From positions 1 to 39,511 of IMG/VR virus record IMGVR_UViG_3300020045_003034: DNA of 39,511 nt, one strand, 5' to 3'. The first letter of the stretch is position 1; each line of letters begins with the position of its first letter. Below are positions 1,520-38,033 of this stretch, one piece after another. A program made the translations under genes and the position numbers. The DNA is from a virus. Its lineage: Duplodnaviria; Caudoviricetes. The notes beneath the pieces were generated by a model, which did not search any database, was not told where the DNA came from, and saw only the letters and a list, made by a program, of their open reading frames with translations.

Positions 1520-1573
1520 AAAAATACCCGCTTATATAGCGGGTTTAAATTAACCTAATACTCTATTATAGCA
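1520..1573 (-). promoter_or_regulatory. Leader cassette 1: extended -10, conserved leader, hairpin/U-tract
   Basis: TGCTATAAT AGAGT ATTAGGTT AATTTA AACCCGC TATATAA GCGGGTA TTTTT ATG. Confidence 0.85.
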
Positions 1574-1575
1574 TT

Positions 1576-2001
1576 TTATTTCTTTTCTAAACCGAAATGC
1601 ATTACTTTAAAATTACCAGATTCTCCTAAACCGACGTTTTTAAATTTTTTATCAAGTATATTATTTAAGTGCTTTTGACTGTCCAACCATTTTTCTACAC
1701 TGTTTACATTATCAAAGTCTTTGGCCATATTTTCTCCAGCGTCTTTAAATTTATACCCTGCATTTTTGATTAAATCCCAAGACATTTTTCCATCTGGGTC
1801 AACATGACTCCAATAATTACGGTTAACCATATCGTCTGCTTTTGACTTTGAAGATTCATTTAGCCTTTGGTCTTGTGTAAGTTCTGGTAGTCCGTTATCT
1901 TTTCTAACTCTATTTATTGTATTTATAATATAATTTATATCAAAAGTATTACCTTGGTAGCATTTTAAATTAGCTTTCTCTTTTGGGATATCTGATAACA
2001 T
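1576..2001 (-). CDS. CAP/SCP-domain protein (YkwD-like)
   Basis: INRVRKDNGL..L, KADDM..NYWSH, AGENMA, WLDSQKHLNNILD..VGLG match the CAP pattern. Confidence 0.9.
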   Translation of the reverse strand: MLSDIPKEKANLKCYQGNTFDINYIINTINRVRKDNGLPELTQDQRLNESSKSKADDMVNRNYWSHVDPDGKMSWDLIKNAGYKFKDAGENMAKDFDNVNSVEKWLDSQKHLNNILDKKFKNVGLGESGNFKVMHFGLEKK

Positions 2002-2003
2002 AA

Positions 2004-3179
2004 TTATTCATATTTAACAAATACATTACTGTTTGCCCCTGTTATTGTCAAAAAAAGTCCTGTATTGAACAAAGTACCACCAGCTCCATCAAAAGATAAA
2101 CCAAAAGGCTGAGTTTGAGCGCCCATTGTGCCAGATGACCATAATACAACACCAGATGTTGATGCACCGTCATACAAAGTAATGACGCTATTATTAACGA
2201 CAGCACTTATATTTGCCAAATGTAAAGACCCTGGGCCATTTTTTAAAAGTACGCCAGCAGTTGTCCCTTGTTGAAAATAAGTTTTAGCTTGTGAGTTTGG
2301 TGTACCATATCTTGATATAGTCATTACCATGCATGAAGAAGTTACAACACTTCCTACTCCAGTGTTAGTATTGTCAAAAAATGGTCTTAAATGTTGTGTC
2401 CCACATAAAGAAGTGGTGGTAGCCATTGATGTATGTATTGGAGTCCCATCAATGACAAACATTACTCTCTTATTAGTGTAATAAATTTCAAAGGTATGAT
2501 AGTTTGTGTCTATTGTGTAAGTTCCGCCAGTGGATGACCCTTTACCATTAAAACTTCCTGAATTGACTACGGTATTATTTCCTGCTTTTCTCTTTACAAT
2601 ACTAAAAGTAGTTCCACTTAATTGAAAAAAGTATCCGTCTACTATTGGTAAAATATTACAAACACCCCATCTTCTAGTATTATTATCAATTCCAATATCT
2701 CCAACTTTTAATACAGCTCTATAATAATTCATATTAGCACCCATATAACGAGCTAAAGAATTGGCGTATATACCAGAACTTGAACCACTATCAGCAGTGG
2801 TTGTTAAAATTGCTTCTGTATTACTAACCGTTACCGTTCCATTAGATGCCAAAACAGATGTATAAAAATTAGAATCTAAAGTAACTCCGTTAAATACACC
2901 GCCAGACAAACGATAGTTTTGAGCTACCTTTAATTGATTAAGCATAGTCCCCTCTATGTCGTTTCCATATTCATCATTTAGTTTAGTTGTTTGTTCTCCA
3001 TTAGTTTGATTATCTGATGTAGCTGGATCAATTATAGTGTCTGTAGAATCTACAATATTGGTTTCTGTTAAAAGTCTCTCGCTAGAATCTCTTATTTTAG
3101 CTGGTATTATTTTCCTACTTAAAGTAGACTCCGCACCTAGAGCTACTGATCTATTTTCGTCTCTTACTAATGATGTCAT
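2004..3179 (-). CDS. Virion appendage protein with ConA/lectin-like beta-sandwich
   Basis: 391 aa; RDENR N-terminus; YHTFEIYY..VMFVIDG typical of ConA-like folds. Confidence 0.65.
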   Translation of the reverse strand: MTSLVRDENRSVALGAESTLSRKIIPAKIRDSSERLLTETNIVDSTDTIIDPATSDNQTNGEQTTKLNDEYGNDIEGTMLNQLKVAQNYRLSGGVFNGVTLDSNFYTSVLASNGTVTVSNTEAILTTTADSGSSSGIYANSLARYMGANMNYYRAVLKVGDIGIDNNTRRWGVCNILPIVDGYFFQLSGTTFSIVKRKAGNNTVVNSGSFNGKGSSTGGTYTIDTNYHTFEIYYTNKRVMFVIDGTPIHTSMATTTSLCGTQHLRPFFDNTNTGVGSVVTSSCMVMTISRYGTPNSQAKTYFQQGTTAGVLLKNGPGSLHLANISAVVNNSVITLYDGASTSGVVLWSSGTMGAQTQPFGLSFDGAGGTLFNTGLFLTITGANSNVFVKYE

Positions 3180-3233
3180 AATAAAAAATCCGTCACTTAG
3201 ACGGATAAAATTCCTTAATATACTATTATACCA
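3180..3233 (-). promoter_or_regulatory. Leader cassette 2
   Basis: TGGTATAAT AGTAT ATTAAGG AATTTT ATCCGTC TAAGT GACGGAT TTTTTATT ATG. Confidence 0.85.
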
Positions 3234-3755
3234 TTAAGATTGCGATATCCTTTGTAGGTATGCCTCTCTTTCTTTATTCTTCTTAGCTAATAAATCTGTA
3301 CTTTCTTTCATTTCTCTTACAATAGCTTTTTCTTTAGCAAGCATAAGTTCTCGTGATTTTAAATCATCTTCTTTTTTAAGCAACTCTTCTTTAAGGTTTT
3401 TACTAGAAGCAAGTAGGGCATTTAATTCTATTGTTTGTTTGTCTAATTCTGATTTTCTTTTTAAATAGTCTATATCAAAAGTATTTATCTCAAGTTGTTT
3501 TCTATCTAAAGTTTCAGTTTTCTTCTTTATCTCAAGATTCTCTTTGTCTATATAATCTGTTTGTGATTTAATACCTATTTTCTCTTTTTCTAATTCAGCA
3601 TAGCTTTTTTCTATTTCTTTTTTTTGTTGGAGTAGCTTTGATTCTAAGTCAAGTAAGCTCTTCTCTTTAGAGTCAAGTGATTCAACATCAGCATTTATGG
3701 ATTCACACATCTTAACAAATTGATCTGTTTGTGATTTTACATTGTCTATATTCAT
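3234..3755 (-). CDS. Coiled-coil hypothetical protein
   Basis: 173 aa, K/E/L heptads, ATGA overlap with upstream gene. Confidence 0.75.
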   Translation of the reverse strand: MNIDNVKSQTDQFVKMCESINADVESLDSKEKSLLDLESKLLQQKKEIEKSYAELEKEKIGIKSQTDYIDKENLEIKKKTETLDRKQLEINTFDIDYLKRKSELDKQTIELNALLASSKNLKEELLKKEDDLKSRELMLAKEKAIVREMKESTDLLAKKNKEREAYLQRISQS

Positions 3756-3994
3756 ACTTCGGCCTCTATTTCTTTAATAATTCCCTCTAATACTAATGGC
3801 ATAGATGGGTTTACTTCTCTTTTATTAGCGATGAAAGTAATAAGGTGTTTCTTAAGATGGGAATAAAGAGGCTCTTCAAACGATTTTAAGTCCATTCCCG
3901 GAATAGTGTAATCAACTGGGTGTAAATCGCCGTTAATATCATAACTAATTGTGAAATCTTCATTTATTGGGTTGAAGAGAAACTTTTTTGTCAT
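3752..3994 (-). CDS. Hypothetical protein
   Basis: 80 aa in a coupled gene run; N-terminus (FNPINEDFTISYD) loosely resembles HNPMDKDYTCIWD of 4171-4764. Confidence 0.7.
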   Translation of the reverse strand: MTKKFLFNPINEDFTISYDINGDLHPVDYTIPGMDLKSFEEPLYSHLKKHLITFIANKREVNPSMPLVLEGIIKEIEAEV

Positions 3995-4178
3995 TTGACA
4001 TGTCCTTAAATTTTATTTCGTCTTCTAATTCTTCGACAGTATCACATAAAACTATAACCATTTCCATTAAAGTCTTCATGTTGATAGCACCTATTCTATC
4101 AAGACGATTGAATGCTGCCTTATATTCTCCTTTACCGACTCTAACTCCTAAAATAGTAGATATTTTATCGTTAATCAT
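3960..4178 (-). CDS. Hypothetical protein
   Basis: 72 aa, overlaps neighbours in operon fashion. Confidence 0.7.
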   Translation of the reverse strand: MINDKISTILGVRVGKGEYKAAFNRLDRIGAINMKTLMEMVIVLCDTVEELEDEIKFKDMSNDKKVSLQPNK

Positions 4179-4764
4179 TGGTTATGTCCTTAATAGATGG
4201 CTTCTTAGTTATAATCGTTTGTTCTGGGGTATCTGATGAAGTATTAGGCATGAATTTTTTGTTCATCATGTCATTCATGTGCTCTTCTTCGCTCTTAAAA
4301 TCAGCCATTGGCATTTGATTCTCTTCTATGTCTAAACCATACTCTCTAACGATGCCTAACCAAAGTGTATCAAACAAAGAATCAACAACTTTTCTATCGT
4401 TAGTACGAGGTAGATTATTCCAAACTGTTTGTTCATGCCATTTAGTTTCAAAGTTAGCACCGCTCTTTTCTTTTTCAATAATCCTTTTTTCTACAATTTT
4501 ACTATTATCAAGATTGATAAGTAAATCTTTCATCTCGTTAAAGTATTTACGAGCAATATGGAAAGGGAGTTCATTGTTACCTAGCCCAAATCCAATATCA
4601 CGATTACAATTAGGGACAACGTGTTTGAATTTATCCCAAATACAAGTATAGTCTTTGTCCATTGGGTTATGAACCATAACTGTATCTTTGGAATGTCTCT
4701 CTAATTCTCTTTTATAAGCATCACCGACTTTATTTTGTGCTAATTGTTCAGGTGTAAGTTCCAT
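4171..4764 (-). CDS. Hypothetical protein
   Basis: 197 aa ORF, TAATG coupling to upstream small ORF. Confidence 0.8.
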   Translation of the reverse strand: MELTPEQLAQNKVGDAYKRELERHSKDTVMVHNPMDKDYTCIWDKFKHVVPNCNRDIGFGLGNNELPFHIARKYFNEMKDLLINLDNSKIVEKRIIEKEKSGANFETKWHEQTVWNNLPRTNDRKVVDSLFDTLWLGIVREYGLDIEENQMPMADFKSEEEHMNDMMNKKFMPNTSSDTPEQTIITKKPSIKDITND

Positions 4765-4931
4765 TATTCTGCATAATTAACTAATAATTGAGGAGCCAAT
4801 AAAACGTATTTATCTTCAACTTGTGTGTATGATATTGGGGAAATCTTGATAACAATCTTTTCTTTTTCTAAAAACTTACTTAAAACAACTATAGCCTCTT
4901 CTTTTGGTTTGCTTAAATTAGCATTTTTCAT
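4764..4931 (-). CDS. Hypothetical 55-aa protein, probably leaderless
   Basis: MKNANLSKPKEEAIVVLSKFLEKEKIVIKISPISYTQVEDKYVLLAPQLLVNYAE; TGCTATAAT 6 nt before ATG. Confidence 0.7.
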   Translation of the reverse strand: MKNANLSKPKEEAIVVLSKFLEKEKIVIKISPISYTQVEDKYVLLAPQLLVNYAE

Positions 4932-4963
4932 ATGCATATTATAGCATATAAAATTAATGTCAA

Positions 4964-5233
4964 TTATTTAGCGCCGTATGAAGATGAAGCTGAAACTGTG
5001 ATATCACATGTACCCGAAGCGATGATAAGACAACCAGTTTTTAAATCGTAGTATTCGTATTGAGAGCCTACAGTAGGGTTAGTGATAGTAGCTACGTTAG
5101 CAGTTGTGCCAGTAATACCATCAATAACTTTAATTGTACCTGTTAAGGCTGCATTGACTGTAATCAATACTTTAGAAACATAACCAGTTGCTACTTGAGT
5201 AGCAGTATTATCAACAATATATTTATAAGCCAT
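4964..5233 (-). CDS. Small beta-rich virion protein
   Basis: Likely start MAYKY at 5233 (the track start lies inside an intergenic hairpin); T/V/A-rich. Confidence 0.7.
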   Translation of the reverse strand: MAYKYIVDNTATQVATGYVSKVLITVNAALTGTIKVIDGITGTTANVATITNPTVGSQYEYYDLKTGCLIIASGTCDITVSASSSYGAK

Positions 5234-5299
5234 ATTTTTTAAAATTATTAACTTCTTATTCCTATCCACCATATAGATGGATAGTTTAAAAACCTAATA

Positions 5300-5815
5300 T
5301 TACATTAAAGTTTGTAAGTAGATATCCCAAGTATCAGCAGCAGTACAAACAGCAATTATTTCACTGTGTTTACCAGTAGTAACAGCAGCAGTACCTCCAA
5401 TGATAGTAGTACCAGAAGCAGCAGTTGTTAAAGTAGCTGTTTGGTTTCCATAATTGTAATAAAGACATCTAATAGTCGTACCGACAACTGAACCTAAAGT
5501 GGCACTTAATAAAGCCCCAGTATCAAAAGTAATAGTACCCGCACCAGTTTTAGAGTTGTGTTTAACGATTCCACCTAACAAAGCAGCTGCTGTAAGAGTT
5601 CCATTTTGAGCATCAATTGTGGTGATGGTCAATTTTTGAATTGGTTGTGGAGCGGTAAAGCTATCAGTAGCCGACAATGCACCAGTAACAGCTAATCCTG
5701 CACCAGCAGTAATAGCACCAGTAACAGCAAGGGTAGAACCCATAGTAACGGCTTTGTCTGTGTTTAATCCATTGAATTGGACTACAGGCAAATGATCTTC
5801 AATTTTGATTGACAT
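5300..5815 (-). CDS. Head-associated structural protein
   Basis: Likely start MSIKIED at 5815 after AAGGA; T/A/G-rich; lies downstream of capsid genes. Confidence 0.7.
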   Translation of the reverse strand: MSIKIEDHLPVVQFNGLNTDKAVTMGSTLAVTGAITAGAGLAVTGALSATDSFTAPQPIQKLTITTIDAQNGTLTAAALLGGIVKHNSKTGAGTITFDTGALLSATLGSVVGTTIRCLYYNYGNQTATLTTAASGTTIIGGTAAVTTGKHSEIIAVCTAADTWDIYLQTLM

Positions 5816-5885
5816 ATTTTCCTTTTTATTGTTCTCTCCCCTGTCAAGCAAGGTCAAGAGCGAAATTATAATTTGAGTATAGACT

Positions 5886-5923
5886 CACTGTTACCCCCTA
5901 CCGAAGTAAGGGATAATGTCAGT
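5886..5923 (-). other. Intergenic stem-loop with cUUCGg tetraloop
   Basis: TTATCCCTTA CTTCGG TAGGGGGTAA. Confidence 0.7.
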
Positions 5924-6655: not shown

Positions 6656-6697
6656 ATTTTTTTATATAAATAATAATTTAAGGATAAATCCTTACAG

Positions 6698-6723
6698 TTC
6701 TCCCCGACCGAAGTCGGGAAGAA
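6698..6723 (-). other. Intergenic stem-loop with cUUCGg tetraloop after the MCP
   Basis: TTCTTCCCGA CTTCGG TCGGGGAGAA, no U-tract. Confidence 0.75.
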
Positions 6724-6732
6724 TCAAAAGAC

Positions 6733-7836: not shown

Positions 7837-7865
7837 ATTTTATAATTTAAATAATAAATATAGAC

Positions 7866-7922
7866 AAAAAAAGCCGCCTCTTCCGAGACGGCATATATTT
7901 ACCTATTTAAATAATTATATCA
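7866..7922 (-). promoter_or_regulatory. Leader cassette 3 (major capsid)
   Basis: TGATATAAT TATTTA AATAGGT AAATAT AT GCCGTCTC GGAA GAGGCGGC TTTTTTT; ATG about 30 nt further on. Confidence 0.8.
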
Positions 7923-8477: not shown

Positions 8478-9344
8478 TTATTTCTTCTTAAAAAAGCTGA
8501 AGAAATCTTTTGTACCATGAATCTCTCTATAGTCTATTTCATCTTCATTGGTTGGAGCAACTACATTTGATCTACCGGCAACTGGTGCATCGTGTCCAGC
8601 TGGTTGAGTTGTCAGTGGTTTATAGTGTTCGTAAAATATTTCTTTTAAAGAATTTATCAAAGGCTTTTGTTGTTCAGGTGGCAGACTCTTATTTTCTTCG
8701 GCAATCTTGATATTGACATCATACATTGTCTTAAATAGATTACGCCTTTCTTGAACACCTAAATCTTTCTCATCATTAGCGTCTTTGATAGATGGTAATT
8801 TATTGGACTTAACTAGATCATCTAATTGATTGTCGATGTATCTATTATATTGGTTTTGTGCTTCTTCTTTGCGTTGTGTTTCAGTTTTCTTTAGTTCTTC
8901 TTGTTCAGATATCTTAGCTTGTTTTTCTGATTCTTTCTTTTCCCAAAGCTTTTCAGCCTTTAACTCAGCTATTCTAGTTGCTTCTTCGTTTATCTCAGCA
9001 TAGTCTTTAGGATTACGACCCTCTCTAACATAGATAGGGAGCATTTCATCTTTCATTCTAGCTTCATCAGCTTCTTGTCTTTCTTTAGCGTCTTGCTCTT
9101 CTTTTTCTTGATCGGCTAATTCTTTTTGAGTTTTAACTATATTTTCAGCGACTTTCTTGCCAAATTCTTCTTCGTCAATTTCGACAGTCTTCTCTTCTTT
9201 TTTTGGAGTTTCTTTTGGTTCTTCGGTTTTATCTTCGACAGTCTTGTCTTCTTCTAATGTAACTGGTTCACCTAAAAAAGCACTAGCTGCAATGTTTTCT
9301 GCTTCTTGTGCCGGACTAATAATCTCTTCTGGTTTTTTCTTCAT
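8478..9344 (-). CDS. Capsid scaffolding protein (putative)
   Basis: 288 aa, very E/K-rich helical, between portal and MCP. Confidence 0.7.
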   Translation of the reverse strand: MKKKPEEIISPAQEAENIAASAFLGEPVTLEEDKTVEDKTEEPKETPKKEEKTVEIDEEEFGKKVAENIVKTQKELADQEKEEQDAKERQEADEARMKDEMLPIYVREGRNPKDYAEINEEATRIAELKAEKLWEKKESEKQAKISEQEELKKTETQRKEEAQNQYNRYIDNQLDDLVKSNKLPSIKDANDEKDLGVQERRNLFKTMYDVNIKIAEENKSLPPEQQKPLINSLKEIFYEHYKPLTTQPAGHDAPVAGRSNVVAPTNEDEIDYREIHGTKDFFSFFKKK

Positions 9345-9377
9345 TCTAAATTGAATTTGTAATACTGTATTATAGCA
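9345..9377 (-). promoter_or_regulatory. Hairpin-less variant of the leader cassette (scaffold)
   Basis: TGCTATAAT ACAGT ATTACAAATTC AATTTA GA ATG. Confidence 0.65.
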
Positions 9378-11599: not shown

Positions 11600-11655
11600 A
11601 AAATAAAAAGACCGCACATCGGCGGTCTAAATTGACTTAATAGATTATTATACCA
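11600..11655 (-). promoter_or_regulatory. Leader cassette 4 (portal)
   Basis: TGGTATAAT AATCT ATTAAGTC AATTTA GACCGC CGATGT GCGGTC TTTTTATTTT ATG. Confidence 0.85.
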
Positions 11656-11901
11656 TCAAATAACAGGGTGAAACATATACCTGCTCTTACAATTCTTGCA
11701 TTGAAGTACTGTACCAACCTTATATGGGACTTCTCCGGGTACAATTTGAGCTACTGACCCTTTGTATTGAATCAATGGATTTTGACAATTAGGGCAGAAA
11801 AACATTTTTAAATTATATCCTTGTGGGTCTGTTAAGTCTCTTTGTAGCCATACACTCGTTACTGGTATCTCAATCACTACGCCTTTTATTTCTACGATCA
11901 T
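11656..11901 (-). CDS. Zinc-ribbon protein, Mu Com-like
   Basis: FFCPNCQNPL..VLQCKNCKS, 81 aa, ATGA-coupled to TerL. Confidence 0.6.
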   Translation of the reverse strand: MIVEIKGVVIEIPVTSVWLQRDLTDPQGYNLKMFFCPNCQNPLIQYKGSVAQIVPGEVPYKVGTVLQCKNCKSRYMFHPVI

Positions 11902-13795: not shown

Positions 13796-13880
13796 ATCTA
13801 TATTATAGCACTCTCCCCTATCGCTTTATTTGCCGGGGGGATCGCACAATAACCGCATCTTTTTACTGTAACTAACTATA

Positions 13881-14135
13881 TCATTTAGGTTCATTTTTAA
13901 TTCCTTCTATTACTCTAACCATTTCTTCTTCTTCTTCTGCTACCTTAGGATTGTTCCATTTATAAAGTGTCTTTCCATCTGGTCGCATTACTCCACCTAC
14001 TGGGCTATTCTTTAATTTAATCTTTTCTTTTATTATCTCTGGTACTCTTTGTATATCATTGATCTGTTTAGATCCAATATAATATCCTATTAAGATACTG
14101 ATTATTATTTCTATAAATGTTATTAGACTATTCAT
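13881..14135 (-). CDS. Membrane-anchored hypothetical protein
   Basis: N-terminal hydrophobic helix. Confidence 0.7.
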   Translation of the reverse strand: MNSLITFIEIIISILIGYYIGSKQINDIQRVPEIIKEKIKLKNSPVGGVMRPDGKTLYKWNNPKVAEEEEEMVRVIEGIKNEPK

Positions 14136-14424
14136 TGTAATATTTCTCCTCTAGCCAAACATTCTTTAAATTTTTAATTTCATTTTTACTTACATCAATA
14201 TGTTTAGTTCCATAAGCTTCTACATATTCTTTTGATACATGACCTTCTCTAAAAGGTTGGAGTATATCTTTTGCAAATTGTTTACGTTCTTCTTTTATAT
14301 TCTGGCTAGTGAACTCTACTTGCTTACTTAATTTACCACTAAATTTACGACAACTTTCGCAAGGTATTACTCCTAAGAATTGTTTATATCCTGCTTCATT
14401 TTTGTTGCAGATTGGACACTTCAT
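14128..14424 (-). CDS. Hypothetical protein with N-terminal Zn finger
   Basis: CPIC..CESC. Confidence 0.7.
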   Translation of the reverse strand: MKCPICNKNEAGYKQFLGVIPCESCRKFSGKLSKQVEFTSQNIKEERKQFAKDILQPFREGHVSKEYVEAYGTKHIDVSKNEIKNLKNVWLEEKYYNE

Positions 14425-15961
14425 TTACAATTGTTGCTCCTATAGACTGTAATTGTATAGCAACTGATACTGAATTAATAATTGCATTTTTAACTACAGC
14501 GGTTGGATCAATGATACCTTCTTTAATCATATCTTTAATCTTTCCGTCATTGACATCAACACCAGCATTAGAAAGTTCTGATAAGGACACCAATGTCCTC
14601 ATTTGACCAGCGTCATAACCAGCATTCTTAATAAGAGTATTGAATGGACGTTTAATTGCTTCTTTGAGTATCTTTTCTCCAAAGTTATTCTCATCTAATA
14701 CATGAGATATTTTCTCATATATAATTTCTCCACCTGCAACAATTCCATCAATCATAGAGGCTCTGGTAGCGTGGACTGCATCGTCAACTCTCTCTTTGCG
14801 TTCTTTCATTTCTACTTCTGTGCTTCCTCCTACTCGGATAACCGCAACACCGTTAGTTAGTTTTGCTTGGCGCTCATTAAGTTTGGCTATTTCCCATTCG
14901 CTTGTTTCACCAAGAATTGCTTTTTTAATTCCCTCAACTCTATCTTCAATATCGGATTTAATTCCCTTTCCGCCTACTACTATGGTTGTGTATTTATCTG
15001 ATGTTATTCTGTCTGCTCGGCCTAGGTCTTTAATCTCTAGGTCTTCAAATCTCATATTGGCTTGTTGTGAGATAAAAGTAGCACCTGTCAAGACAGCAAT
15101 ATCTTGTAGACAAAGCTTTTGTTTTTCTCCTGCTTCTGGGGCATGGATACAAAGTATATTAGCTGCACCCCTCATTTTAGTTGTGATTAAGGATGGTAGG
15201 GCTGTACCGGCAATTTCTGGGGCAATAATTACAATATTATCTATTTTTTGTTCAGACATCTCTTTAAATAGAGGTGCTAATTCCATTACATCATTTACAC
15301 TCTTATCGGTAATAAGTATGTATGGATTTTCTATCGTGGCCTCTTCAGTATCAGGATTATTGATAAAGAGATGAGAACAATAACCTTTTCCAAACTGCAT
15401 ACCTTCTTGAAAATCAACCCAAGTTTCATTTCCTTTGCTTTCTTCTATGGTTACAATTCCGTTAATTCCAGTCTTCTCAAGGACTCCCGATACTAACTCA
15501 CCAAGTTCTTCATCTTCAGCACTGATAGTCGCTACCTGTTTAAGCATTTCACCTTTAATAGGAATAGTGATTTTGCCCAACTCGGCTATAAGTTTATCTC
15601 TACCACTCTCTAAACCTTTTCTTAAACTCATAGGGTTAATACCAGCTGAGATTAGTTTGTAACATTCTTTGATTATTTCATCGGATAGGATAGTTACTGC
15701 TGTAGTTCCATCACCAACCATCATCACTTGTTTTTGTGCTGCTTCTCTTACAATCTTGACTCCTAAGTTTTCAGTTGGATCTGATAATTCAATAGCTTTA
15801 GCTACTGACACCCCATCATGTAAAACTACATGCTCATATCCTTTATCAATAGCCACATTCTTTCCACGGCTACCAAGAGTTGTACCGACTGCCGTAGCTA
15901 GTACATCTACACCTTTAATAAGTTTTTTTAATGCTTTATCTTCAAAATTTATTATTTTCAT
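14396..15961 (-). CDS. groEL: Chaperonin GroEL
   Basis: TLGSRGKNV, DGVSVAK, GDGTTA, EGMQF, ERKERVDDAVHAT, GIIDP; no GGM tail. Confidence 0.97.
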   Translation of the reverse strand: MKIINFEDKALKKLIKGVDVLATAVGTTLGSRGKNVAIDKGYEHVVLHDGVSVAKAIELSDPTENLGVKIVREAAQKQVMMVGDGTTAVTILSDEIIKECYKLISAGINPMSLRKGLESGRDKLIAELGKITIPIKGEMLKQVATISAEDEELGELVSGVLEKTGINGIVTIEESKGNETWVDFQEGMQFGKGYCSHLFINNPDTEEATIENPYILITDKSVNDVMELAPLFKEMSEQKIDNIVIIAPEIAGTALPSLITTKMRGAANILCIHAPEAGEKQKLCLQDIAVLTGATFISQQANMRFEDLEIKDLGRADRITSDKYTTIVVGGKGIKSDIEDRVEGIKKAILGETSEWEIAKLNERQAKLTNGVAVIRVGGSTEVEMKERKERVDDAVHATRASMIDGIVAGGEIIYEKISHVLDENNFGEKILKEAIKRPFNTLIKNAGYDAGQMRTLVSLSELSNAGVDVNDGKIKDMIKEGIIDPTAVVKNAIINSVSVAIQLQSIGATIVNEVSNLQQK

Positions 15962-15962
15962 T

Positions 15963-16259
15963 TTATTGTTGAATTTTTGCCATAATATCTAAAAATTTTA
16001 TCACTTTGAAATTTCTACCATTTTCTACAAAACTTTCATGACCCCAATGTCTGCATAAAACTATATCACCTACATTTACATCTTCTGGTGGTTCTATGAT
16101 TGTTCCCCATTCATTTCTAACTGCTTTACCTATTGAAATTACTTTACCCTTTACTTGTTTCTCGTCATCATACATTATTTCTAAAATTCCTGCCTGTTCT
16201 CTAACTGGTTCAAGTATTATTGAACCTGCCATCGGTTTGATTGAGATTAAATTATCCAT
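15963..16259 (-). CDS. groES: Co-chaperonin GroES
   Basis: IKPM..IILEP, GKVISIG, VNVGDIVL, DIMAKI; adjacent to GroEL. Confidence 0.92.
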   Translation of the reverse strand: MDNLISIKPMAGSIILEPVREQAGILEIMYDDEKQVKGKVISIGKAVRNEWGTIIEPPEDVNVGDIVLCRHWGHESFVENGRNFKVIKFLDIMAKIQQ

Positions 16260-16278
16260 ATGCGTGATTATACCAAAT

Positions 16279-19568: not shown

Positions 19569-19589
19569 ATTTTTATTAAATAATATTAT

Positions 19590-19813
19590 TAGTTACTAGA
19601 TACAGGGTATAGTGATTTGACGATAATTGAGTTGATAAAAATTTCTTTTTACCCAGCGCATAATTCTCAACTTAATGCCTAAAATCGTATAGTCACACTA
19701 TATACCACGGACAGGCGAATCAATGGTTGCTACGGATAGTCATTAACTAGTGGGCCTTGCTTTAACCGTACTACAAGTCGATACTTTCGACCTACTCTGT
19801 GTTCTAATAACTA
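19590..19813 (-). ncRNA. Putative structured RNA (~224 nt)
   Basis: Ends pair (TAGTTATTAGA.CACAG / CTGTATCTAGTAACTA) with several internal stems; no ORF in track. Confidence 0.5.
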
Positions 19814-19828
19814 ATTGTTAAATTTCTA

Positions 19829-19906
19829 CTAGGTACACAGAAGATAATGGGTGGCTTGACCAGTGTTGGCAGTGATCGCACTACCCACTCTGTTCTATGT
19901 ACCTAG
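19829..19906 (-). ncRNA. Putative structured RNA (78 nt)
   Basis: 14-bp closing stem CTAGGTACATAGAA / TTCTGTGTACCTAG, inner GGTAGTG-CGAT-CACTGCC. Confidence 0.5.
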
Positions 19907-20017
19907 GTTTTCATAAGTTCATTACGTGTTCCACCTGCTATTCTTTTTTTTTCTGAGTTCCTGAGGCTCAGGTTTCTGATTAGTGTTTATTAACGTTATC
20001 AGTATCGTTATGCTTTT

Positions 20018-20046
20018 ATAATACCACTACATGATTGTAGTGTCAA
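20018..20046 (-). promoter_or_regulatory. Sigma70 promoter with palindromic operator
   Basis: TTGACA-17-TATTAT; CACTACA ATCA TGTAGTG. Confidence 0.8.
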
Positions 20047-20255
20047 GCATTTAGTTTTAATTTACTTTGTATAATCTTATTAGGAGACTTTGAACTATCA
20101 AACGTTAGACCACCGGCATATTGATACCTTAATACTGTAAGACTACATATACCTAGTATCTTAGCTATCTGCTCTCGATTTAATCCTTGCTTATGTAACT
20201 TCACGCATTCATTTATAAGTTTTTGTTTATTTGGTGTTTTAATACTATATTCCAT
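20043..20255 (-). CDS. Small HTH DNA-binding protein
   Basis: Likely start MEYSIK at 20255; LHKQGLNREQIAKILGICSLTVLRY. Confidence 0.8.
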   Translation of the reverse strand: MEYSIKTPNKQKLINECVKLHKQGLNREQIAKILGICSLTVLRYQYAGGLTFDSSKSPNKIIQSKLKLNA

Positions 20256-20260
20256 GCCGT

Positions 20261-20289
20261 AGTATATCACAACATCTAAGTAGTGTATA
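20261..20289 (-). promoter_or_regulatory. Leaderless promoter of the HTH gene with degenerate operator
   Basis: TATACA-17-TATACT-5-ATG; CACTACT TAGA TGTTGTG. Confidence 0.65.
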
Positions 20290-20292
20290 TAT

Positions 20293-20331
20293 AAAAATAC
20301 CTCTCTTGACAAGCAGGGTCTCGAGAGGTAT
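20293..20331 (-). terminator. Intrinsic terminator overlapping the rightward promoter
   Basis: ATACCTCTC..GAGAGGTA followed by TTTTT on the minus strand. Confidence 0.65.
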
Positions 20332-20334
20332 AGT
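20306..20334 (+). promoter_or_regulatory. Sigma70 promoter (rightward)
   Basis: TTGACA-17-TATAGT. Confidence 0.75.
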
Positions 20335-20356
20335 TGATTTATTGTGAATCAACTCT

Positions 20357-20385
20357 ATTATACCCCCACGTTACCACATTGTAAA
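20357..20385 (-). promoter_or_regulatory. Sigma70 promoter (leftward, facing the rightward one)
   Basis: TTTACA-17-TATAAT. Confidence 0.7.
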
Positions 20386-20774
20386 GTACTTGCACAACAG
20401 TATTATTGTGTATTTAAGCCTAATTCCCAATTTTTTCCAATCTCATTTTTGAAATCTATTATTATTATAGATCTAGTGACCAGCAAGAATGCCGAACACA
20501 CTATGGAAACGGAACTCCATTTTAAACCGATGTTTGGATCAGGAACTCATAACTCATCTATACTGATGGATATGATAAGGGTGGGGTTAAAAGCAGGCAA
20601 CCTTTCCGACTCGTAGATAACGACAATAAGGCACTACGAGATAGCGTTTGCGATTCTATGTCTTTAGAGAAAAGATAAACATAGAAACCCAGCTAAAGAA
20701 TCTATAATCTATCTACCTGATGTATTTATATATAGTTAGTATAGGTTAGTTATATTAAAAGTTAGAAAACAAAA

Positions 20775-27490: not shown

Positions 27491-27624
27491 TAAGTTAATT
27501 TTAACATTGTTAAGATGTCGGCATTTCAATGGTTGTTTGCCCTGAAACTAACAGCTTATTTGGTATAATAACTTATCACCATAATAGGACTACTGAAGAT
27601 GAAATATCTAGGGAATGCCTATTT

Positions 27625-27695
27625 GCCTATTTAGTTCAACGGTAGAACGATAGTTTTGTAAACTTTAAACATCTGTCCAACTCAGGTAATAGGCT
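27625..27695 (+). tRNA. tRNA-Thr(TGT), somewhat degenerate
   Basis: Acceptor GCCTATT/AATAGGC, D arm GTTC/GAAC, anticodon loop TTTGTAA, T arm ATCTG-TCCAACT-CAGGT; no CCA. Confidence 0.8.
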
Positions 27696-28030
27696 CATCG
27701 TTTAATAATATCAGGATATATTCTATACATTTTATTTGGAATATCGTCTAACTCTTGGTTAAAAGCCATATTAGCAAAGTAGACTCTTAGAGAGATATCA
27801 TTCTTCCATTCTTTATTTCCATCTATAATCTGATGAAGTCTGTCATGGATATCTGTTTTTAGGGGTATTAGATTAGATTTATCGTTTACATTAAAATCTT
27901 TTAAATCTTGTCGCTTTAAATCTCGCTTATGTATTACATGGTGGCAATTATGTGTCTTTTTATCTTTTGACTTTAATCCACACTCTTCAAAGACAATTTG
28001 TCTATTGTGTGTATAAAGCCTTTCGCTCAT
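27695..28030 (-). CDS. HNH endonuclease-like protein
   Basis: NCHHVI..NDKSNLIPL...HDRLH. Confidence 0.75.
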   Translation of the reverse strand: MSERLYTHNRQIVFEECGLKSKDKKTHNCHHVIHKRDLKRQDLKDFNVNDKSNLIPLKTDIHDRLHQIIDGNKEWKNDISLRVYFANMAFNQELDDIPNKMYRIYPDIIKR

Positions 28031-28051: not shown

Positions 28052-28249
28052 TTATTTACCTTTAAAAAACTTAATACCTGCGTTGATTAAGATTGATAGT
28101 ATTGCGACTACAATAGGAGTATATTCTCCAAAATCAACTTTAGGTAAGACTTCTGCTAAATAAACTAGTACAGCACCACCTACAGCGATACCTGCACCTT
28201 TAGCTATTTTAAGTCCGTCTTCTTTGTTTAAAGTATATTTTTCTGACAT
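28052..28249 (-). CDS. Holin-like 2-TM protein
   Basis: 65 aa, two TM helices, basic C-terminus, next to the peptidase. Confidence 0.7.
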   Translation of the reverse strand: MSEKYTLNKEDGLKIAKGAGIAVGGAVLVYLAEVLPKVDFGEYTPIVVAILSILINAGIKFFKGK

Positions 28250-28389
28250 ATTTTATTTTTAAATTATTAACATAAATTTGTAATTTATAGGTCAACTTAT
28301 TATAAGACAAATGCCTTATTTTAAATTGTGCCTAAGGTACTATATTTTTTTAGAGTCCATGAGCAGTCTATAGATTAGACTGCTAATTA

Positions 28390-28870: not shown

Positions 28871-29221
28871 TTACTTATTAAATAACTTATTAAGCGTAAC
28901 ACCAACATCATTTATTACTTCTTCTTTTTTATCTGGTAATTGAGAGTATGTGTAATATTGTGATGGTGTCATATGTAATTTAATAAGGTCATTCATACTT
29001 GATTTTAACTCTAAAATGTCTTCTTTGTAGTCTACTTTTTTAACGTAAGTATCATCCATTGCCTCTACTTTTGGAGCAATCTCTTTTATTTTATCGATAG
29101 CACTATTAACACCACGTATACCAATGAGAGCTCCGCCAACAAGGCCAACAATACCAGAACAAATGAGAGACACCAATACTTTACTTCGTATTTCTTTAAA
29201 AAATTTCTTAATGTCATTCAT
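28871..29221 (-). CDS. Membrane protein of the lysis module
   Basis: One TM helix plus coiled coil, upstream of the peptidase. Confidence 0.7.
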   Translation of the reverse strand: MNDIKKFFKEIRSKVLVSLICSGIVGLVGGALIGIRGVNSAIDKIKEIAPKVEAMDDTYVKKVDYKEDILELKSSMNDLIKLHMTPSQYYTYSQLPDKKEEVINDVGVTLNKLFNK

Positions 29222-29559: not shown

Positions 29560-29618
29560 ATTTTAAAAATAAAACCCCCAATGTGGGGGATAAATAACCT
29601 TAATATATTATTATAACA
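29560..29618 (-). promoter_or_regulatory. Leader cassette 5
   Basis: TGTTATAAT AATAT ATTAAGGTT ATTTA TCCCCCA CAT TGGGGG TTTTATTTTTAAAAT ATG. Confidence 0.85.
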
Positions 29619-29643
29619 TTTATTCTGGTGCTATAATATGGAA

Positions 29644-29748
29644 ATGATAACATTAGCATTAAACTTAATTGCGTTATGTATAATTGCTTATATAAGTGGG
29701 TGGATACTAATGGCAATTATCGCTTTTTTAAGTAGCTTATTTAAATAA
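29644..29748 (+). CDS. 34-aa hydrophobic peptide, leaderless, opposite strand
   Basis: TGCTATAAT-6-ATG; MITLALNLIALCIIAYISGWILMAIIAFLSSLFK. Confidence 0.65.
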   Translation: MITLALNLIALCIIAYISGWILMAIIAFLSSLFK

Positions 29749-32572: not shown

Positions 32573-32597
32573 AGTTTTATCCTGTTATTGGTTTCAT

Positions 32598-32656
32598 ATA
32601 ATAAAAAATCCCGTGCGATGACGGGACTAAATTGTCTTTAATAGTTTATTATACCA
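32598..32656 (-). promoter_or_regulatory. Leader cassette 6
   Basis: TGGTATAAT AAACT ATTAAAGAC AATTTA GTCCCGT CATCGC ACGGGAT TTTTTATTAT ATG. Confidence 0.85.
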
Positions 32657-32657: not shown

Positions 32658-32927
32658 TTATGAAAGTGTAGCGCTAACCCAAATAGTACCATTCCATATT
32701 TTTAACTTATTTGTATCTGTACAAAAATAATAAGCCGTGCTGTTAGGTGATGTACCCTCACCCTCTGTTGGGAGATTAGATTCTAAGCCAGAACGAATGA
32801 ATCTATTGCCTTCTCCAATATGTCTTTGTTTGATAGTCGCATTTGGGATATCTGATTGATGGACACGAGAAGACTCTAAATTTGAGACTCTTTCTGACAA
32901 CTCACTAATCAATTTTTCGTAGTCCAT
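32658..32927 (-). CDS. Small tail-associated protein
   Basis: YFCTDTNKLKIWNGTIW fibre-type motif. Confidence 0.7.
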   Translation of the reverse strand: MDYEKLISELSERVSNLESSRVHQSDIPNATIKQRHIGEGNRFIRSGLESNLPTEGEGTSPNSTAYYFCTDTNKLKIWNGTIWVSATLS

Positions 32928-32929
32928 TA

Positions 32930-35900: not shown

Positions 35901-36568
35901 CCATCTGAACCAGAACCGAATGAAGCAGACACACCAGCTATATCAAATTTATATGATCGTGTTGCACCTGATTCATCCCATTTAGCAAGAATTGTTTGTG
36001 AGTTACCAACTGTTGGTAGAACTGCTGGTTTTATAGACGCTTCGATACTTAAATCTCCAGTTATAGATAAAGAAGCAGCATCGGTTTTTGAGCCATATTG
36101 AGTAGCGCCATCTAAGACAAGAGAATACGTGTTAAGTCTAACTCCACCTTGAGAACCTAAAAAATCATCATTAAATTTTGCATTAGGGTCATTTATTCTT
36201 CCGTATCTTCCAATAACTTTGTCGCCAGTGTAATAAACTGAATTATCTTCAGCAAAATAACATAAACCATTACCATGACAGTTAGGGATTGTTCTTAGAG
36301 CCGTCCACGATCCAATTAGTGTTCTTTGGTAAAAAGTACCAGCGTCACCAAGTACATAAGTTAAACCGTTTATTGTTTGCTCTCCCCACTTAGGCAAATC
36401 AACAACAACTGTTCCTGATTCTTTAACTGGTTTCCATCCTAGTGTTATTTCACGGGGGTTTGAATCGTTTATAGATCGACCAAAAGAATACGAATCAACA
36501 CTACCTTCTTTTAAAAAGTCAGAAATACCGTTCTTAAATCTAGCTTTAGATATAACTTGTTTTGCCAT
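32930..36568 (-). CDS. Tail nozzle/stabilisation-like protein with inserted LamG and Gly-rich domains
   Basis: Likely start MAKQV at 36568; beta-propeller-like ends; WKHIAVTYD..GKIDEVRLWN LamG motif. Confidence 0.75.
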   Translation of the reverse strand: MAKQVISKARFKNGISDFLKEGSVDSYSFGRSINDSNPREITLGWKPVKESGTVVVDLPKWGEQTINGLTYVLGDAGTFYQRTLIGSWTALRTIPNCHGNGLCYFAEDNSVYYTGDKVIGRYGRINDPNAKFNDDFLGSQGGVRLNTYSLVLDGATQYGSKTDAASLSITGDLSIEASIKPAVLPTVGNSQTILAKWDESGATRSYKFDIAGVSASFGSGSDGALTIAADTTEAPIDSACTGILGAYTLSATNASFAAGQILLIHQTQGSDAGLYERNEIVSYTAGTITLLNPLLKTYTTGSQVRVLKQYSAVTINSGKTYSAKAWNGTTGGILAFLCNGTLTISGSISANGGTTSTITGATGGGFRGGNGIRALGANSKAYCGESNLAVSSQIRTANGNGGGGGQVGSSGDSSGGGGANGSIGIDGKGIGSSVNLFGLGGSIYGNASLTTLPFGGGGGGGAQDGSATGDQAFGGGAGGGIILIYTNDLATITGSITANGGNGGTGVSPDSSGGGGAGGSILLKFVTGSLGVGLITANGGTGYGLAGNGGVGRIHADYYTSISGSTTPTLDSTQDNNLSNNTTYQLRFSVSTDGTAYETLTRQCDLTAGVWKHIAVTYDASASLARFYLNANLLGTSTGALTSISDNASALYLGAHKGASAVGNFLNGKIDEVRLWNDIRTADEINFYKENQIPVNMLGLVAYYTLNNASTDGTANANHLTLTGSPAYSDDVPFLSPTTRNDIDQSQSLSGNTYTIPTSISEVAADMCKFTPTKDPQKSISILIASIGTGNLTVTVHDSNNVVIASKTVDQVNILAGQFEVTFDTPWRPLFNEEYHFHLTSTVAATTVTTGTASSLATVDFKTYFQFLVDDTEFHPIAKMLQFLVFGNERYVAKYEATLYDPNYITLPAGWRIRCFGYYNEYLVIGCMKGDNIYDFDNGRLYFWDGVSTTYNFYLDVPEGGINAILGSKGKLFVWAGYQGDMLIYQGSASASKIKRLPKSTDNNYIEVYPQAVTMWKSYLHFGVGRSDSTIFQRGVFSYGSPNIRYDDSLSFQYIQSGGNYLNTTETGLVMVVGKKLLVGWRDGISYGIDMIDPSNGYAPSGTVEFMVEDSSVTWKEKEAISLIANFKPLQTGESVQIKYKLDRNDNWTLFPVEDTVGTNFVRGSISGTGKTRYNEIEYACDIFSSTGTTTPTLLNVSLEIDDMSKETRLGG

Positions 36569-36569
36569 A

Positions 36570-37523
36570 TTAAATGATCGATTGTGTCCATGCTTTTGAG
36601 GCTGGTGTATATCGATTTGGTCTTTCAATGATAATTCGTTTGTCATCTCTACCAGAATAAGCAGAAGCTAATCCTAGTAAACCAGCACTATTTTTATCAC
36701 TTCCTCTGTCTCTATTTGCATTATTACCATCACCTGTCCAAAATTTGTTATTCCACCATGTAGCAATTTCTATACTTGAACGAGACCCCGCATAGAAATC
36801 CGCTGTGACACCATCCACCAATAGCACATGGCCTTCATCGGGGATTTCTGGACATTCGCAGACTCTATACGAGGCACCGATTACGGTATCGCCCTCAAAA
36901 TTACTAGAGAGAGTGATTGATGTAGCGGATGTGTAAGCACTGATTTTATACCAGTAGCCTGCACCATATACTTCGGAGGTGATTTGTAACCATCTTCCTA
37001 CCATGGCTTTTGTGAATGTCGTACCTGAACCTACAATAGCAGTTGAATTGAGTGTAGCGGTGATTGTTCCAGTTGTATAATCTTCAACAGTCAAGTTTCT
37101 ATCCCTCATAAAAGCATTAAAAGTATAAGGATATATTCCTTGAGGAATAGGCCAAATACCAAAATCATTATGACGATAAAAAATAAATTGAGGATATGCA
37201 GTTGGTTGAATCTGAATAGCATTGAATAAATCCCATTGAGTTTGTGAATAGATAGGGCTTAATACGTTTTTAAATGATCCTACTTCTACTGTACAAGTAT
37301 CACCTTTAATTACACCTGCTGGGTAACTATAAAATGGAGTATTTACGGCGGTATTACCTGTCTTAGGCTGCGAAGTAATATAACTTTGCATTTCTGCTAG
37401 TGTTTGTTGATATCTTGCGCCTAAATTTACCTTAAATTGATTGAGTAAAATAGTGTCAGTTGAACCCACTTGCCCGATATTAGAGAGAAAATTGTTTTTA
37501 ATATCAGTGTAAGATAATTTTAT
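36570..37523 (-). CDS. Head-tail adaptor protein (putative), probable ATA start
   Basis: P..IFY....GIWPIP adaptor-like motif; frame open upstream of the track GTG to AGGAGG-5-ATA. Confidence 0.7.
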   Translation of the reverse strand: MKLSYTDIKNNFLSNIGQVGSTDTILLNQFKVNLGARYQQTLAEMQSYITSQPKTGNTAVNTPFYSYPAGVIKGDTCTVEVGSFKNVLSPIYSQTQWDLFNAIQIQPTAYPQFIFYRHNDFGIWPIPQGIYPYTFNAFMRDRNLTVEDYTTGTITATLNSTAIVGSGTTFTKAMVGRWLQITSEVYGAGYWYKISAYTSATSITLSSNFEGDTVIGASYRVCECPEIPDEGHVLLVDGVTADFYAGSRSSIEIATWWNNKFWTGDGNNANRDRGSDKNSAGLLGLASAYSGRDDKRIIIERPNRYTPASKAWTQSII

Positions 37524-37972
37524 TTTGCCCTCCTTTTTAAAATAGTGATTTTTCCAGTATCTAAATCTTTATGGCATTTTGGACAAAGACATATATAATC
37601 ATTTTTATCATCATATTTACCAGAAATATTTGCCCAATGACAACCATGTTTACCTCCAACGTCTCCACACATAGAGCAATTACTAGTTTTACCTAGTCTA
37701 TAATGTAATGCTCTATATCCAGCGTAAGCACCTTTCCATGCCCAATGTTCATTTTCAGAACATTTACCTTTTCGAGATTGACTAATTTTAATTTTCATTT
37801 CTTCTGATATATGTGTTCCAAAACGATAATGTTTGATTCCTGATAAAAATCCTTCTAATCCTTTATTCCAAGGAATTTTACCTTTATGTGCTTCTGATAG
37901 ATTGTTTCTCCATTCTTCAGATATTGGTGGTCTTTTGTAACCACTTTTATGTATGTACATTCCTTTTGGCAT
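37520..37972 (-). CDS. NUMOD3-containing HNH endonuclease
   Basis: SEEWRNNLSEAHKGKIPWNKG, HISEEMKIKISQSRKG, CSMCG..HWAN..LCPKCH. Confidence 0.88.
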   Translation of the reverse strand: MPKGMYIHKSGYKRPPISEEWRNNLSEAHKGKIPWNKGLEGFLSGIKHYRFGTHISEEMKIKISQSRKGKCSENEHWAWKGAYAGYRALHYRLGKTSNCSMCGDVGGKHGCHWANISGKYDDKNDYICLCPKCHKDLDTGKITILKRRAK

Positions 37973-38033
37973 AATTATATAAAAAAAGCCCGTCTTTCGA
38001 CGAGCTAAATTGCTTTAATAGTTTATTATACCA
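37973..38033 (-). promoter_or_regulatory. Leader cassette 7
   Basis: TGGTATAAT AAACT ATTAAAGC AATTTA GCTCGTC GAAA GACGGGC TTTTTTTATATAATT ATG. Confidence 0.85.

Follow-up and report, generated by a model that had tools for sequence, protein, structure and literature searches.

We describe a regulatory cassette that occurs in seven copies in a tailed phage genome, IMG/VR record IMGVR_UViG_3300020045_003034 (Duplodnaviria; Caudoviricetes), where a promoter, a short leader and an intrinsic terminator stand ahead of genes such as those for the portal and the major capsid protein. The record is a complete genome of 39,511 bp with direct terminal repeats and 33% GC, and "the window" below means this whole stretch. 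The main finding is that the leader can form a mini-hairpin that overlaps the terminator, that this pairing is conserved in related phages, and that its loop differs from phage to phage. From these sequence comparisons, we see a slightly better than even chance that the cassette is an RNA switch opened by a phage protein, most likely the Com-like zinc protein ZnA, acting on the mini-hairpin. The parts of this proposal differ in strength: it is highly probable that the mini-hairpin is a ligand site controlling read-through, and quite probable that its ligand is encoded by the phage.

Seven promoter-terminator cassettes

The original prediction placed seven copies on the minus strand, and all seven are found there, each with TGnTATAAT, an AT-rich leader, a GC-rich hairpin and a U-tract. 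They are listed below with their mini-hairpins, whose loops are set in brackets. The labels scaffold, adaptor, ejection and lysis used here come from position and composition, with no profile hits behind them.

1520..1573, minus strand: cassette 1, before gp103 and a tail-fibre-like gene (promoter 1565-1573; terminator stem 1526-1544)
1542-1555, minus strand: mini-hairpin of cassette 1, GGUU[AAUUUA]AACC
3180..3233, minus strand: cassette 2, before gp391 and a CAP-domain gene (promoter 3225-3233; terminator stem 3188-3206)
3203-3214, minus strand: mini-hairpin of cassette 2, GGA[AUUUUA]UCC
7837..7922, minus strand: cassette 3, before the major capsid gene (promoter 7914-7922; terminator stem 7873-7892; ATG reached after an AU-rich spacer of 36 nt)
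7890-7903, minus strand: mini-hairpin of cassette 3, GGUA[AAUAUA]UGCC
11600..11655, minus strand: cassette 4, before the portal gene and directly after the ZnA stop codon (promoter 11647-11655; terminator stem 11609-11628)
11625-11636, minus strand: mini-hairpin of cassette 4, GUC[AAUUUA]GAC
29560..29618, minus strand: cassette 5, before gp102b, gp116 and putative lysis genes (promoter 29610-29618; terminator stem 29575-29589)
29588-29599, minus strand: mini-hairpin of cassette 5, weak, the sole copy that fails the 3-bp test
32573..32656, minus strand: cassette 6, before the putative ejection genes gp326 and gp614 (promoter 32648-32656; terminator stem 32607-32628)
32625-32636, minus strand: mini-hairpin of cassette 6, GAC[AAUUUA]GUC
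32577-32597, minus strand: 6-codon open reading frame (ORF; MKPITG) between the U-tract of cassette 6 and the gp326 start
37973..38033, minus strand: cassette 7, before a NUMOD3 gene, the adaptor-like gp299 and gp1238 (promoter 38025-38033; terminator stem 37987-38006)
38003-38014, minus strand: mini-hairpin of cassette 7, AGC[AAUUUA]GCU

Every copy has the layout of an intrinsic terminator, with the U-tract directly after the GC-rich hairpin, and a terminator scan lists the stems of all seven. The promoter was expected to start 0-2 nt past the upstream stop codon in six copies, and the gaps are indeed 2, 0, 1, 0, 1 and 0 nt, the exception being the copy at 29618. The further claim that an ATG follows right after the U-tract needs correction for copies 3 and 6, where it lies 36 nt away, in copy 6 beyond the 6-codon ORF. 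Back to back with cassette 5, a leaderless-type promoter at 29629 (plus strand) precedes a 36-aa hydrophobic ORF (29638-29748, MEMITLALNL...), possibly a membrane peptide.

TGnTATAAT occurs 12 times on the minus strand of the window and three times on the plus strand. For the relatives, promoters were counted in 76 capsid-related loci plus the window, the loci not being deduplicated. In this set TGnTAYAAT is found 341 times on the gene strand as against 19 times on the opposite strand; of the 341, 169 are followed by an ATG at a distance of 4-9 nt and 86 by a hairpin and U-tract within 45 nt, and only nine are preceded by a hairpin and U-tract. Where a distinct promoter has an ORF start within 40 nt (n = 152), the gap is exactly 6 nt in 77 cases and 5-7 nt in 104, and this leaderless peak at 6 nt puts the transcription start of the cassettes on the A of AUUA or a neighbouring base. 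The genes behind the 86 cassettes include portal (22), capsid (15) and adaptor (7) genes, while 31 are unlabelled or without a called ORF; when weaker or TTGACA-type promoters are allowed, most of the relatives listed carry a cassette before the capsid gene. Of 369 terminators in the phage loci, 121 are preceded by a TGn promoter and three are followed by one. In 400 kb of one Patescibacteria genome, none of 177 terminators has such a promoter upstream, and five have one downstream.

The comparisons support the prediction that host-type promoters feed promoter-proximal intrinsic terminators and that late genes are gated at many sites. The contrary view, that the hairpins are ordinary terminators of upstream genes, holds in part: six of them lie about 30 nt past a stop codon and would also end upstream transcripts. 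That role is not exclusive, and those upstream transcripts carry the same switch.

A mini-hairpin that overlaps the terminator

In six of the seven copies, the terminator 5' arm begins with bases that pair with a box of 3-4 nt, closing an A(A/U)U(U/A)UA loop between the two. The leader, which had been thought conserved as a linear box, is thus a stem-loop instead. Since the 3' strand of the mini-hairpin is the base of the terminator's 5' arm, the two folds are mutually exclusive.

Conservation in relatives, a check proposed along with the original prediction, was scored with our own scripts in place of a covariance model. The mini-hairpin is present in 64 of 77 distinct cassettes, as against 26.6 +/- 3.8 when partners are swapped (maximum 42 of 77 in 1000 shuffles). 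When the swaps are made within one phage, the figures are 80/100 and 39.2 +/- 2.4, and with one cassette per locus they are 50/57 and 22.5 +/- 3.1, so that the signal survives the kinship controls. It also depends on the class of terminator: the mini-hairpin accompanies 102 of 124 promoter-linked intergenic terminators, 23 of 54 promoterless intergenic ones and 46 of 181 antisense terminator-like sites. Modules found without any requirement for U have 6-8 T in the next 8 nt in 160/205 cases, the remainder being mostly chance loops that are not A-rich, and the U-tract therefore belongs to the module.

The G.U pairs of the terminator tell pairing apart from copying. Of 44 such positions, the box complements the 5' arm by Watson-Crick pairing in 40 and repeats the 3' arm in the other 4, which indicates that selection acts on pairing, not duplication; an origin of the box as a duplicate of the terminator 3' arm was rejected on these grounds. 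A TAAATT/AATTTA DNA operator was also considered and dropped, since similar bases follow leaderless promoters as well and the pairing box covaries.

In most modules, the mini-hairpin starts 7-11 nt after the -10 element, with about 5 nt of RNA upstream of it. Its folding energy is -0.4 to -3.1 kcal/mol, as against -10.2 to -12.8 kcal/mol for six full leaders; because the terminator fold is far more stable, the mini-hairpin would need a ligand. One alternative dispenses with any protein: the mini-hairpin would be a kinetic competitor whose fixed leakiness sets the ratios of virion proteins, and the hairpins would mainly end upstream genes. The mini-hairpin is indeed the predicted fold of nascent RNAs of 18-24 nt, and the location of six of the seven hairpins shortly after a stop codon suits this explanation too. 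However, a kinetic competitor requires no fixed loop, whereas the loops here are conserved and phage-specific, and the same loops occur at start codons and in coding frames where there is no terminator. With an energy gap of about 8-10 kcal/mol in addition, we give this explanation a slight chance. For a ligand-bound mini-hairpin the requirement is modest: transcript release depends on the bottom pairs of the terminator stem, and holding two to four of them should suffice.

Before the capsid gene in the relatives L001, L023-L025 and L036, there are tandem promoterless terminators, each with its own mini-hairpin, which fits site-by-site action. These copies bear on another alternative, processive antitermination of the Q or AlpA type, in which a factor would load at the promoter DNA or at the 5' hairpin (as at a nut site) and then ignore terminators. 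Such a factor would not need separate hairpins on promoterless tandem terminators, and the overlap of the hairpin with the terminator arm also speaks against it. All ten window sites do lie within about 30 nt of a promoter, as it would predict, but no promoter hexamer is present within 75 nt ahead of the scaffold site of L022 in its close relatives L021 and G012, and there is no conserved DNA upstream of the -10 element. The analogy to Q and AlpA drawn in the original prediction is not supported: upstream of the -10 element the seven copies share only 3-4 A-rich bases (columns -40 to -4 before TG are conserved in 2-5 of 7 copies), and the conserved unit is the RNA hairpin. AlpA, by contrast, reads a DNA site within the promoter (PMC7969949). 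We consider processive antitermination very improbable.

The distant relatives G452 and L197 have a 3-bp hairpin with another loop, AGC[UCGUCA]GCU, readable by eye inside the 5' arm itself. L214 (MW202566) has ZnA, gp197 and promoter-then-terminator leaders at 13940-14044 and 29007-29088, and its GC-richer loop candidates could not be fitted to the AAUUUA type. A search of the window against Rfam returned tRNA-Thr alone at the gathering score, with weak matches (E <= 5) to generic terminators, and the best match of four cassettes was Trp_leader at 26.9 bits, below the gathering threshold of 41 bits. In the 400 kb searched of one Patescibacteria genome there was no sign of a host regulon of the cassette type, although the true host may be a different organism. 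Strict pattern scans of viral contigs found four loci, all in this phage family; relaxed scans found 20 and 27, and the matches outside the family are unstable folds or a different antisense element.

Phage-specific loops and hairpins at start codons

Among 132 modules in 37 phages, loops agree in 4.23 of 5 features within a phage and in 2.87 between phages. For example, all nine loops in G003 end in C, those in G012 are ACACA, and those in G007 are ACAUA or ACUUA. This pattern in the sequences indicates that the loop is a recognition site and, together with the covarying hairpin, supports the predicted phage factor that reads the leader.

Outside the cassettes, the same hairpin is found in the window at the starts of three genes:

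9343-9377, minus strand: eighth promoter-leader, without terminator, at the start of the putative scaffold gene; candidate repression site
9343-9356, minus strand: scaffold-start mini-hairpin AUUC[AAUUUA]GAAU, covering the first two bases of the AUG
16244..16275, minus strand: GroES, with a leaderless promoter at 16267-16275 and the hairpin GGAU[AAUUUA]AUCU at +3 to +16 of the coding sequence; candidate repression site
4910..4946, minus strand: gp57-gp197-gp72-gp80-gp173 operon, with a leaderless promoter at 4938-4946; candidate repression site
4910-4923, minus strand: gp57-start hairpin UGCU[AAUUUA]AGCA, in the first codons

In total, the window has 13 such hairpins on the minus strand and 10 on the plus strand. 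The 13 comprise six in cassettes, three at the scaffold, GroES and gp57 starts, one about 25 nt upstream of a putative holin gene, and three inside genes. The holin-region hairpins, ACA[AAUUUA]UGU at 28270-28281 (minus strand), about 25 nt before the putative holin start, and GGAG[AAUAUA]CUCC at 28116-28129 (minus strand), inside the holin gene, may be further sites or chance.

We examined 2279 starts in 56 deduplicated phages, with the loops of other phages as the control. Hairpins with the phage's own loop that end at -2..+6 of the ATG number 17, as against 2.9 +/- 1.9 in the control, while elsewhere around the ATG there are 0-2 in four far bins and six at +20..+29. For leaderless genes, own-loop hairpins ending at +17..+30 number 7 against 0.9. 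The recurring terminator-less targets in relatives are scaffold, GroES and the gp57/gp197 operon, that is, the same three as in the window, and the scaffold start is the commonest (five in the -2..+6 test and five more in the further test). At the same place in the scaffold frame, L044 has CAGG[ACACA]CCUG and L022 has CCUG[ACACA]CAGG, with the stem strands exchanged around one loop. By analogy, a protein bound at such a hairpin would block ribosomes; actinobacterial ANTAR motifs overlap start codons likewise (PMC8164766).

In L038, L047, L052 and L072, there is no capsid terminator, and the capsid leader folds instead into a stem that buries the AUG (-11.6 to -19.1 kcal/mol); in L038, the hairpin CAGC[AUAUA]GCUG overlaps the 5' arm of this stem. 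L069 and L071, whose capsid leaders also lack a terminator, keep the hexaloop hairpin ahead of a weaker structure. The AUG-burying stems of the four relatives follow the same logic as Mu mom (PMC6483171).

These relatives, and the precedent of Mu Com in the same source, lend some weight to a purely translational gate, in which the large hairpin would block ribosome loading in a phage without Shine-Dalgarno sequences, a factor would free the start, and the U-run would be an AU-rich initiation region. It also agrees with the large hairpin ending 7-15 nt before the AUG in five copies. The U-tract, however, abuts the stem at any distance from the ATG, including capsid copies 20-70 nt away and the tandem copies, and we regard this explanation as unlikely.

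Proposed switch mechanism

The structure and its phage-specific loop are observed features, and the termination, read-through, repression and factor described next are what we infer from them. The extended -10 promoters, which are visible in the sequence, would start RNA at the A of AUUA, about 6 nt past the hexamer. By default, the GC-rich hairpin and U-tract would yield RNAs of about 40 nt. Given a ligand, the 3-4 bp hexaloop hairpin would shut out the bottom pairs of the terminator, an exclusion that the covariation supports. ZnA would be made first, from the ungated terS-terL-ZnA operon, alongside the GroES/EL, scaffold and gp57 operons. As it accumulates, it would bind mini-hairpins, hold the base of the 5' arm and open terminators one by one, and host RNA polymerase would then continue into the genes for portal, capsid, tail, ejection and lysis. 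Bound at the starts of scaffold, GroES and gp57, the same protein would block ribosomes and so damp the helpers while virion proteins rise. This second, translational use of the hairpin is probable, and the simplest reading of the order is helpers first, followed by virion proteins with the helpers damped.

Comparison with known systems

In lambda Q and Pseudomonas AlpA, as here, late or lysis genes stand behind a promoter-proximal terminator read by host polymerase (PMC7969949; PMC7171158). Those factors read promoter DNA and modify the polymerase, whereas here each terminator has its own RNA site (PMC7969949). None of the 65 ORFs matches a Q- or AlpA-family protein in PHROGs or Pfam at E <= 0.001, although a divergent one is possible.

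The ANTAR proteins EutV, NasR and AmiR read a hexaloop hairpin with a short stem just 5' of an intrinsic terminator, with A at loop position 1, a multi-site regulon and a translational mode over the start codon (PMC3369931, PMC8164766), all of which resembles the cassettes. Unlike the cassettes, which have one hairpin each and would serve a phage late programme, ANTAR leaders have a dual hairpin, P1 and P2, and they have G at loop position 4 where we find U (PMC3369931). In 57 hexaloops of the present family, position 1 is A in 52, and position 4 is T in 39, A in 16, C in 2 and G in none. No match to the ANTAR domain (PF03861) was found at E <= 10 in the complete phage genome.

BglG/SacY antitermination is similar in that a single protein-stabilised hairpin, the ribonucleic antiterminator (RAT), overlaps and excludes the terminator; the RAT is 29-30 nt long, as against 11-14 nt for the hairpin here (PMC3369931). 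The cognate domain was not found in the phage ORFs, nor was there an Rfam RAT match at the gathering score. With the autoregulation of the P22 scaffolding protein, the present system shares post-transcriptional control at the scaffold start and a portal-scaffold-capsid module, and it differs in that this type of site controls seven terminators and two further helper operons as well (bioRxiv 10.1101/2022.12.13.520362).

Finally, Mu Com/mom has a small C4 zinc protein encoded just upstream of the gated gene and a short hairpin beside a larger inhibitory structure, as here, but Com acts on the translation of one mRNA through CC(N)2-3GAG, whereas the present sites number about ten, lie mostly at terminators and have an AU-rich loop (PMC6483171). 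ZnA also differs from Com: it is extended at the N terminus, and its cysteine pairs stand about 14 residues further apart. The cassette works like the ANTAR P2 hairpin and like Com/mom, yet falls outside both definitions.

Candidate proteins

The proteins considered as the factor are as follows.

11656..11901, minus strand: ZnA, an all-beta C4 zinc protein of 81 aa, encoded between large terminase and portal; foremost candidate for the RNA-binding factor
4171..4764, minus strand: gp197, conserved and ungated; rival candidate, sharing a domain with gp80 (3752-3994)
8478..9344, minus strand: putative scaffolding protein, acidic and without a profile hit, encoded between portal and capsid; both a target and a rival candidate
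14128-14424, minus strand: ZnB, a second conserved C4 protein after GroEL

In 23 near-complete relatives, the structural genes, scaffold, ZnA, gp197 and gp80 are nearly universal. ZnA is present in 22, and the contig of the 23rd breaks at its place, between a partial terminase and a partial portal gene; gp197 and gp80 are each present in 22 and missing from a record that is 81% complete. The residues C36, C39, C68 and C71 of ZnA are invariant in 82 sequences, which suggests zinc binding, and its predicted model is all-beta with a predicted local distance difference test (pLDDT) score of 87. ZnA relatives number 267 at cluster level. The gene lies between terminase and portal in all eight records of a distant set, and among 401 Patescibacteria genomes its profile matched on a phage contig only.

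The likeness of ZnA to Mu Com is weak and depends on the alignment: hhalign gives a probability of 93% with a wide alignment of 12 sequences, whose members were picked to favour distant homologues, and sub-threshold matches to Com or translational-regulator PHROGs appear in 4 of 10. The ZnA model has no Foldseek match at E <= 0.001 and a best VIA Z of 2.4, and the gp197 model (pLDDT 64, built on seven sequences) has a best Z of 4.2; neither result implies a novel fold. In the ESM Atlas, ZnA leads to unnamed clusters and gp197 to no match.

We consider ZnA the ligand with a little over even confidence. The same RNA switch could be worked by another protein, with the free scaffolding protein or the gp197/gp80 domain binding the mini-hairpin; jointly, we hold these to be a minority possibility. 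In the scaffold version, the site at its own start would mean autoregulation, and procapsid assembly would titrate the regulator, coupling the output of virion genes to the state of assembly. The frequency of scaffold starts among terminator-less targets favours it. The scaffold is largely acidic, and neither it nor gp197/gp80 has a profile match to any RNA-binding family; the AUG-burying variants, moreover, mirror Com/mom. The complete TM7 phage MG269973 has an ORF in the scaffold position yet no cassettes, a weak point, since homology was not detected.

That TM7 phage has capsid, portal, terminase, adaptor, gp1238, GroEL and ZnB in common with the window. It has no ZnA, no match to gp197/gp80 and no promoter-then-terminator cassette, and its terminators precede promoters. 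ZnB as the factor was rejected, since it was not found in the complete, cassette-bearing G022 and G029 and is present in this cassette-less phage. In G452 and the TM7 phage, the C-terminal half of ZnB persists without the cysteines. In distant phages, one single gene matches both the gp197 and the gp80 profiles.

Several observations weigh against ZnA or against the switch itself. The TM7 phage lacks ZnA and gp197/gp80 alike, so this single case does not tell them apart. Distances between loops and proteins fail to single out ZnA, as the Spearman coefficients are level for ZnA (0.30-0.34), gp197 (0.37-0.40), capsid (0.30-0.33) and scaffold (0.31-0.33); the adjacent genes score lower than ZnA, terminase at about 0.02 and portal at about 0.2. 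The two phages whose loops end in C do not have closely similar ZnA proteins (ranks 28 and 20 of 59), and a link of such loops to ZnA position 33, seen by eye in two phages, was rejected on the counter-example L058. Among 48 phages, the 10 with a doubled ZnA all have 5-nt loops, but they form one clade and hence one event. The start of ZnA itself has a site in one phage only, the commonest target being the scaffold start. With the 82-sequence alignment, the hhalign probability against Com drops to 9%; PF10122 has no match in the window genome, and its best match in a distant relative reaches 17.3 bits against a cut-off of 22.9, while Com ranks second of 162 unrelated C4 proteins at 13.2 bits. 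As for the RNA, we estimate that polymerase adds only about 8-11 nt between the point where the mini-hairpin can fold freely and termination, and copy 5 has a hairpin of 2 bp only. Of the 17 start-codon matches, five belong to unlabelled ORFs and at least one, in G004, is a wrongly called start within a cassette.

Genome, host and other elements

The minus strand carries the terminase, portal, capsid, GroES/GroEL and tail-like genes, and a short plus-strand block carries ERF, RusA and a methylase. Cassettes gate the portal, the capsid cluster, gp391, gp103 and fibre, the adaptor-like gene and gp1238, and the putative ejection and lysis genes. Ungated, with leaderless or short-leader promoters, are GroES/EL, terS-terL-ZnA, scaffold, the gp57 operon and gp50. 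Two further features belong to the ungated set:

13802..13810, minus strand: promoter of the terS-terL-ZnA operon, leaderless and ungated
14396-16259, minus strand: GroEL and GroES genes, shared with 17 of the 23 near-complete relatives and with the TM7 phage

The host is likely a member of Patescibacteria, as we infer from several matches. In the GroEL search, 2 of the 120 matches listed are cellular ones that name a taxon, Daviesbacteria and Collierbacteria. The capsid has two matches among 50,697 phage records, and the one with a known host is TM7 phage MG269973 (27.7%, E 1e-26). Two of five genome-bin matches are to Patescibacteria bins and three to others. In the Patescibacteria bin G035, leaderless TGHTATAAT promoters occur at 24 per Mb, as against 0 for the reversed pattern.

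The region 19570-20770 is long, gene-poor and divergent, with TTGACA-type promoters on both strands (20306 plus, 20385 minus, 20046 minus) and a small helix-turn-helix ORF at 20043-20312; it is likely an early control or origin region. A TGGTATAAT promoter lies ahead of the tRNA-Thr(UGU) gene (27625-27696), within 27561-27696 on the plus strand.

Two other elements were seen in the comparisons. A second conserved, promoterless element follows the gp243-like gene (L004:11864, L005:5864, L020:4957, L060:11890, L062:9602, L064:11948); it consists of a purine-rich stretch with GCGTAA followed by a terminator, and the loop region of this terminator, which reads CCTTACG in several loci, could pair with the purine-rich stretch. 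A stretch at about 5860-5923 in the window resembles it, without a U-tract. In unrelated prophages (L176:10001-10052, L158, L170, L172-L174, L179, L181, L185), there is an antisense promoter with a terminator hairpin just upstream of a gene of about 125 aa before the terminase. On the mRNA strand of this group, a hairpin is complementary to the ribosome site and GTG start of that gene, which suggests antisense control of a late activator.

Implications

Phages time their late genes by new polymerases or sigma factors, by DNA-binding activators, or by processive antiterminators such as Q. In the open-licence PMC and bioRxiv literature, we found no description in a phage of a distributed, site-by-site RNA switch with one two-way factor. 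As a tentative extension, which we hold at somewhat less than even confidence, a widespread family of Patescibacteria phages of about 40 kb may control all of its late genes through a single small RNA-binding protein of the zinc-ribbon type and a hairpin of 12 nt. Protein bound ahead of a terminator would open virion and lysis operons, ahead of an AUG-burying stem it would activate translation, and on a start codon it would shut off the chaperonin, scaffold and helper genes, with protein and loop co-diverging into phage-private codes. The parts are tiny, namely 81 aa and about 45 nt with a consensus-like promoter, and they are testable in E. coli or B. subtilis without culture of the host. For the zinc-protein family of 267 clusters, this is a first functional proposal, and it offers a testable mechanism of gene control in Patescibacteria phages, where little is known of regulation. 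If true, it would be a fourth way to time phage late genes, and the phage-specific loops would provide a natural library of orthogonal RNA switches, both transcriptional and translational.

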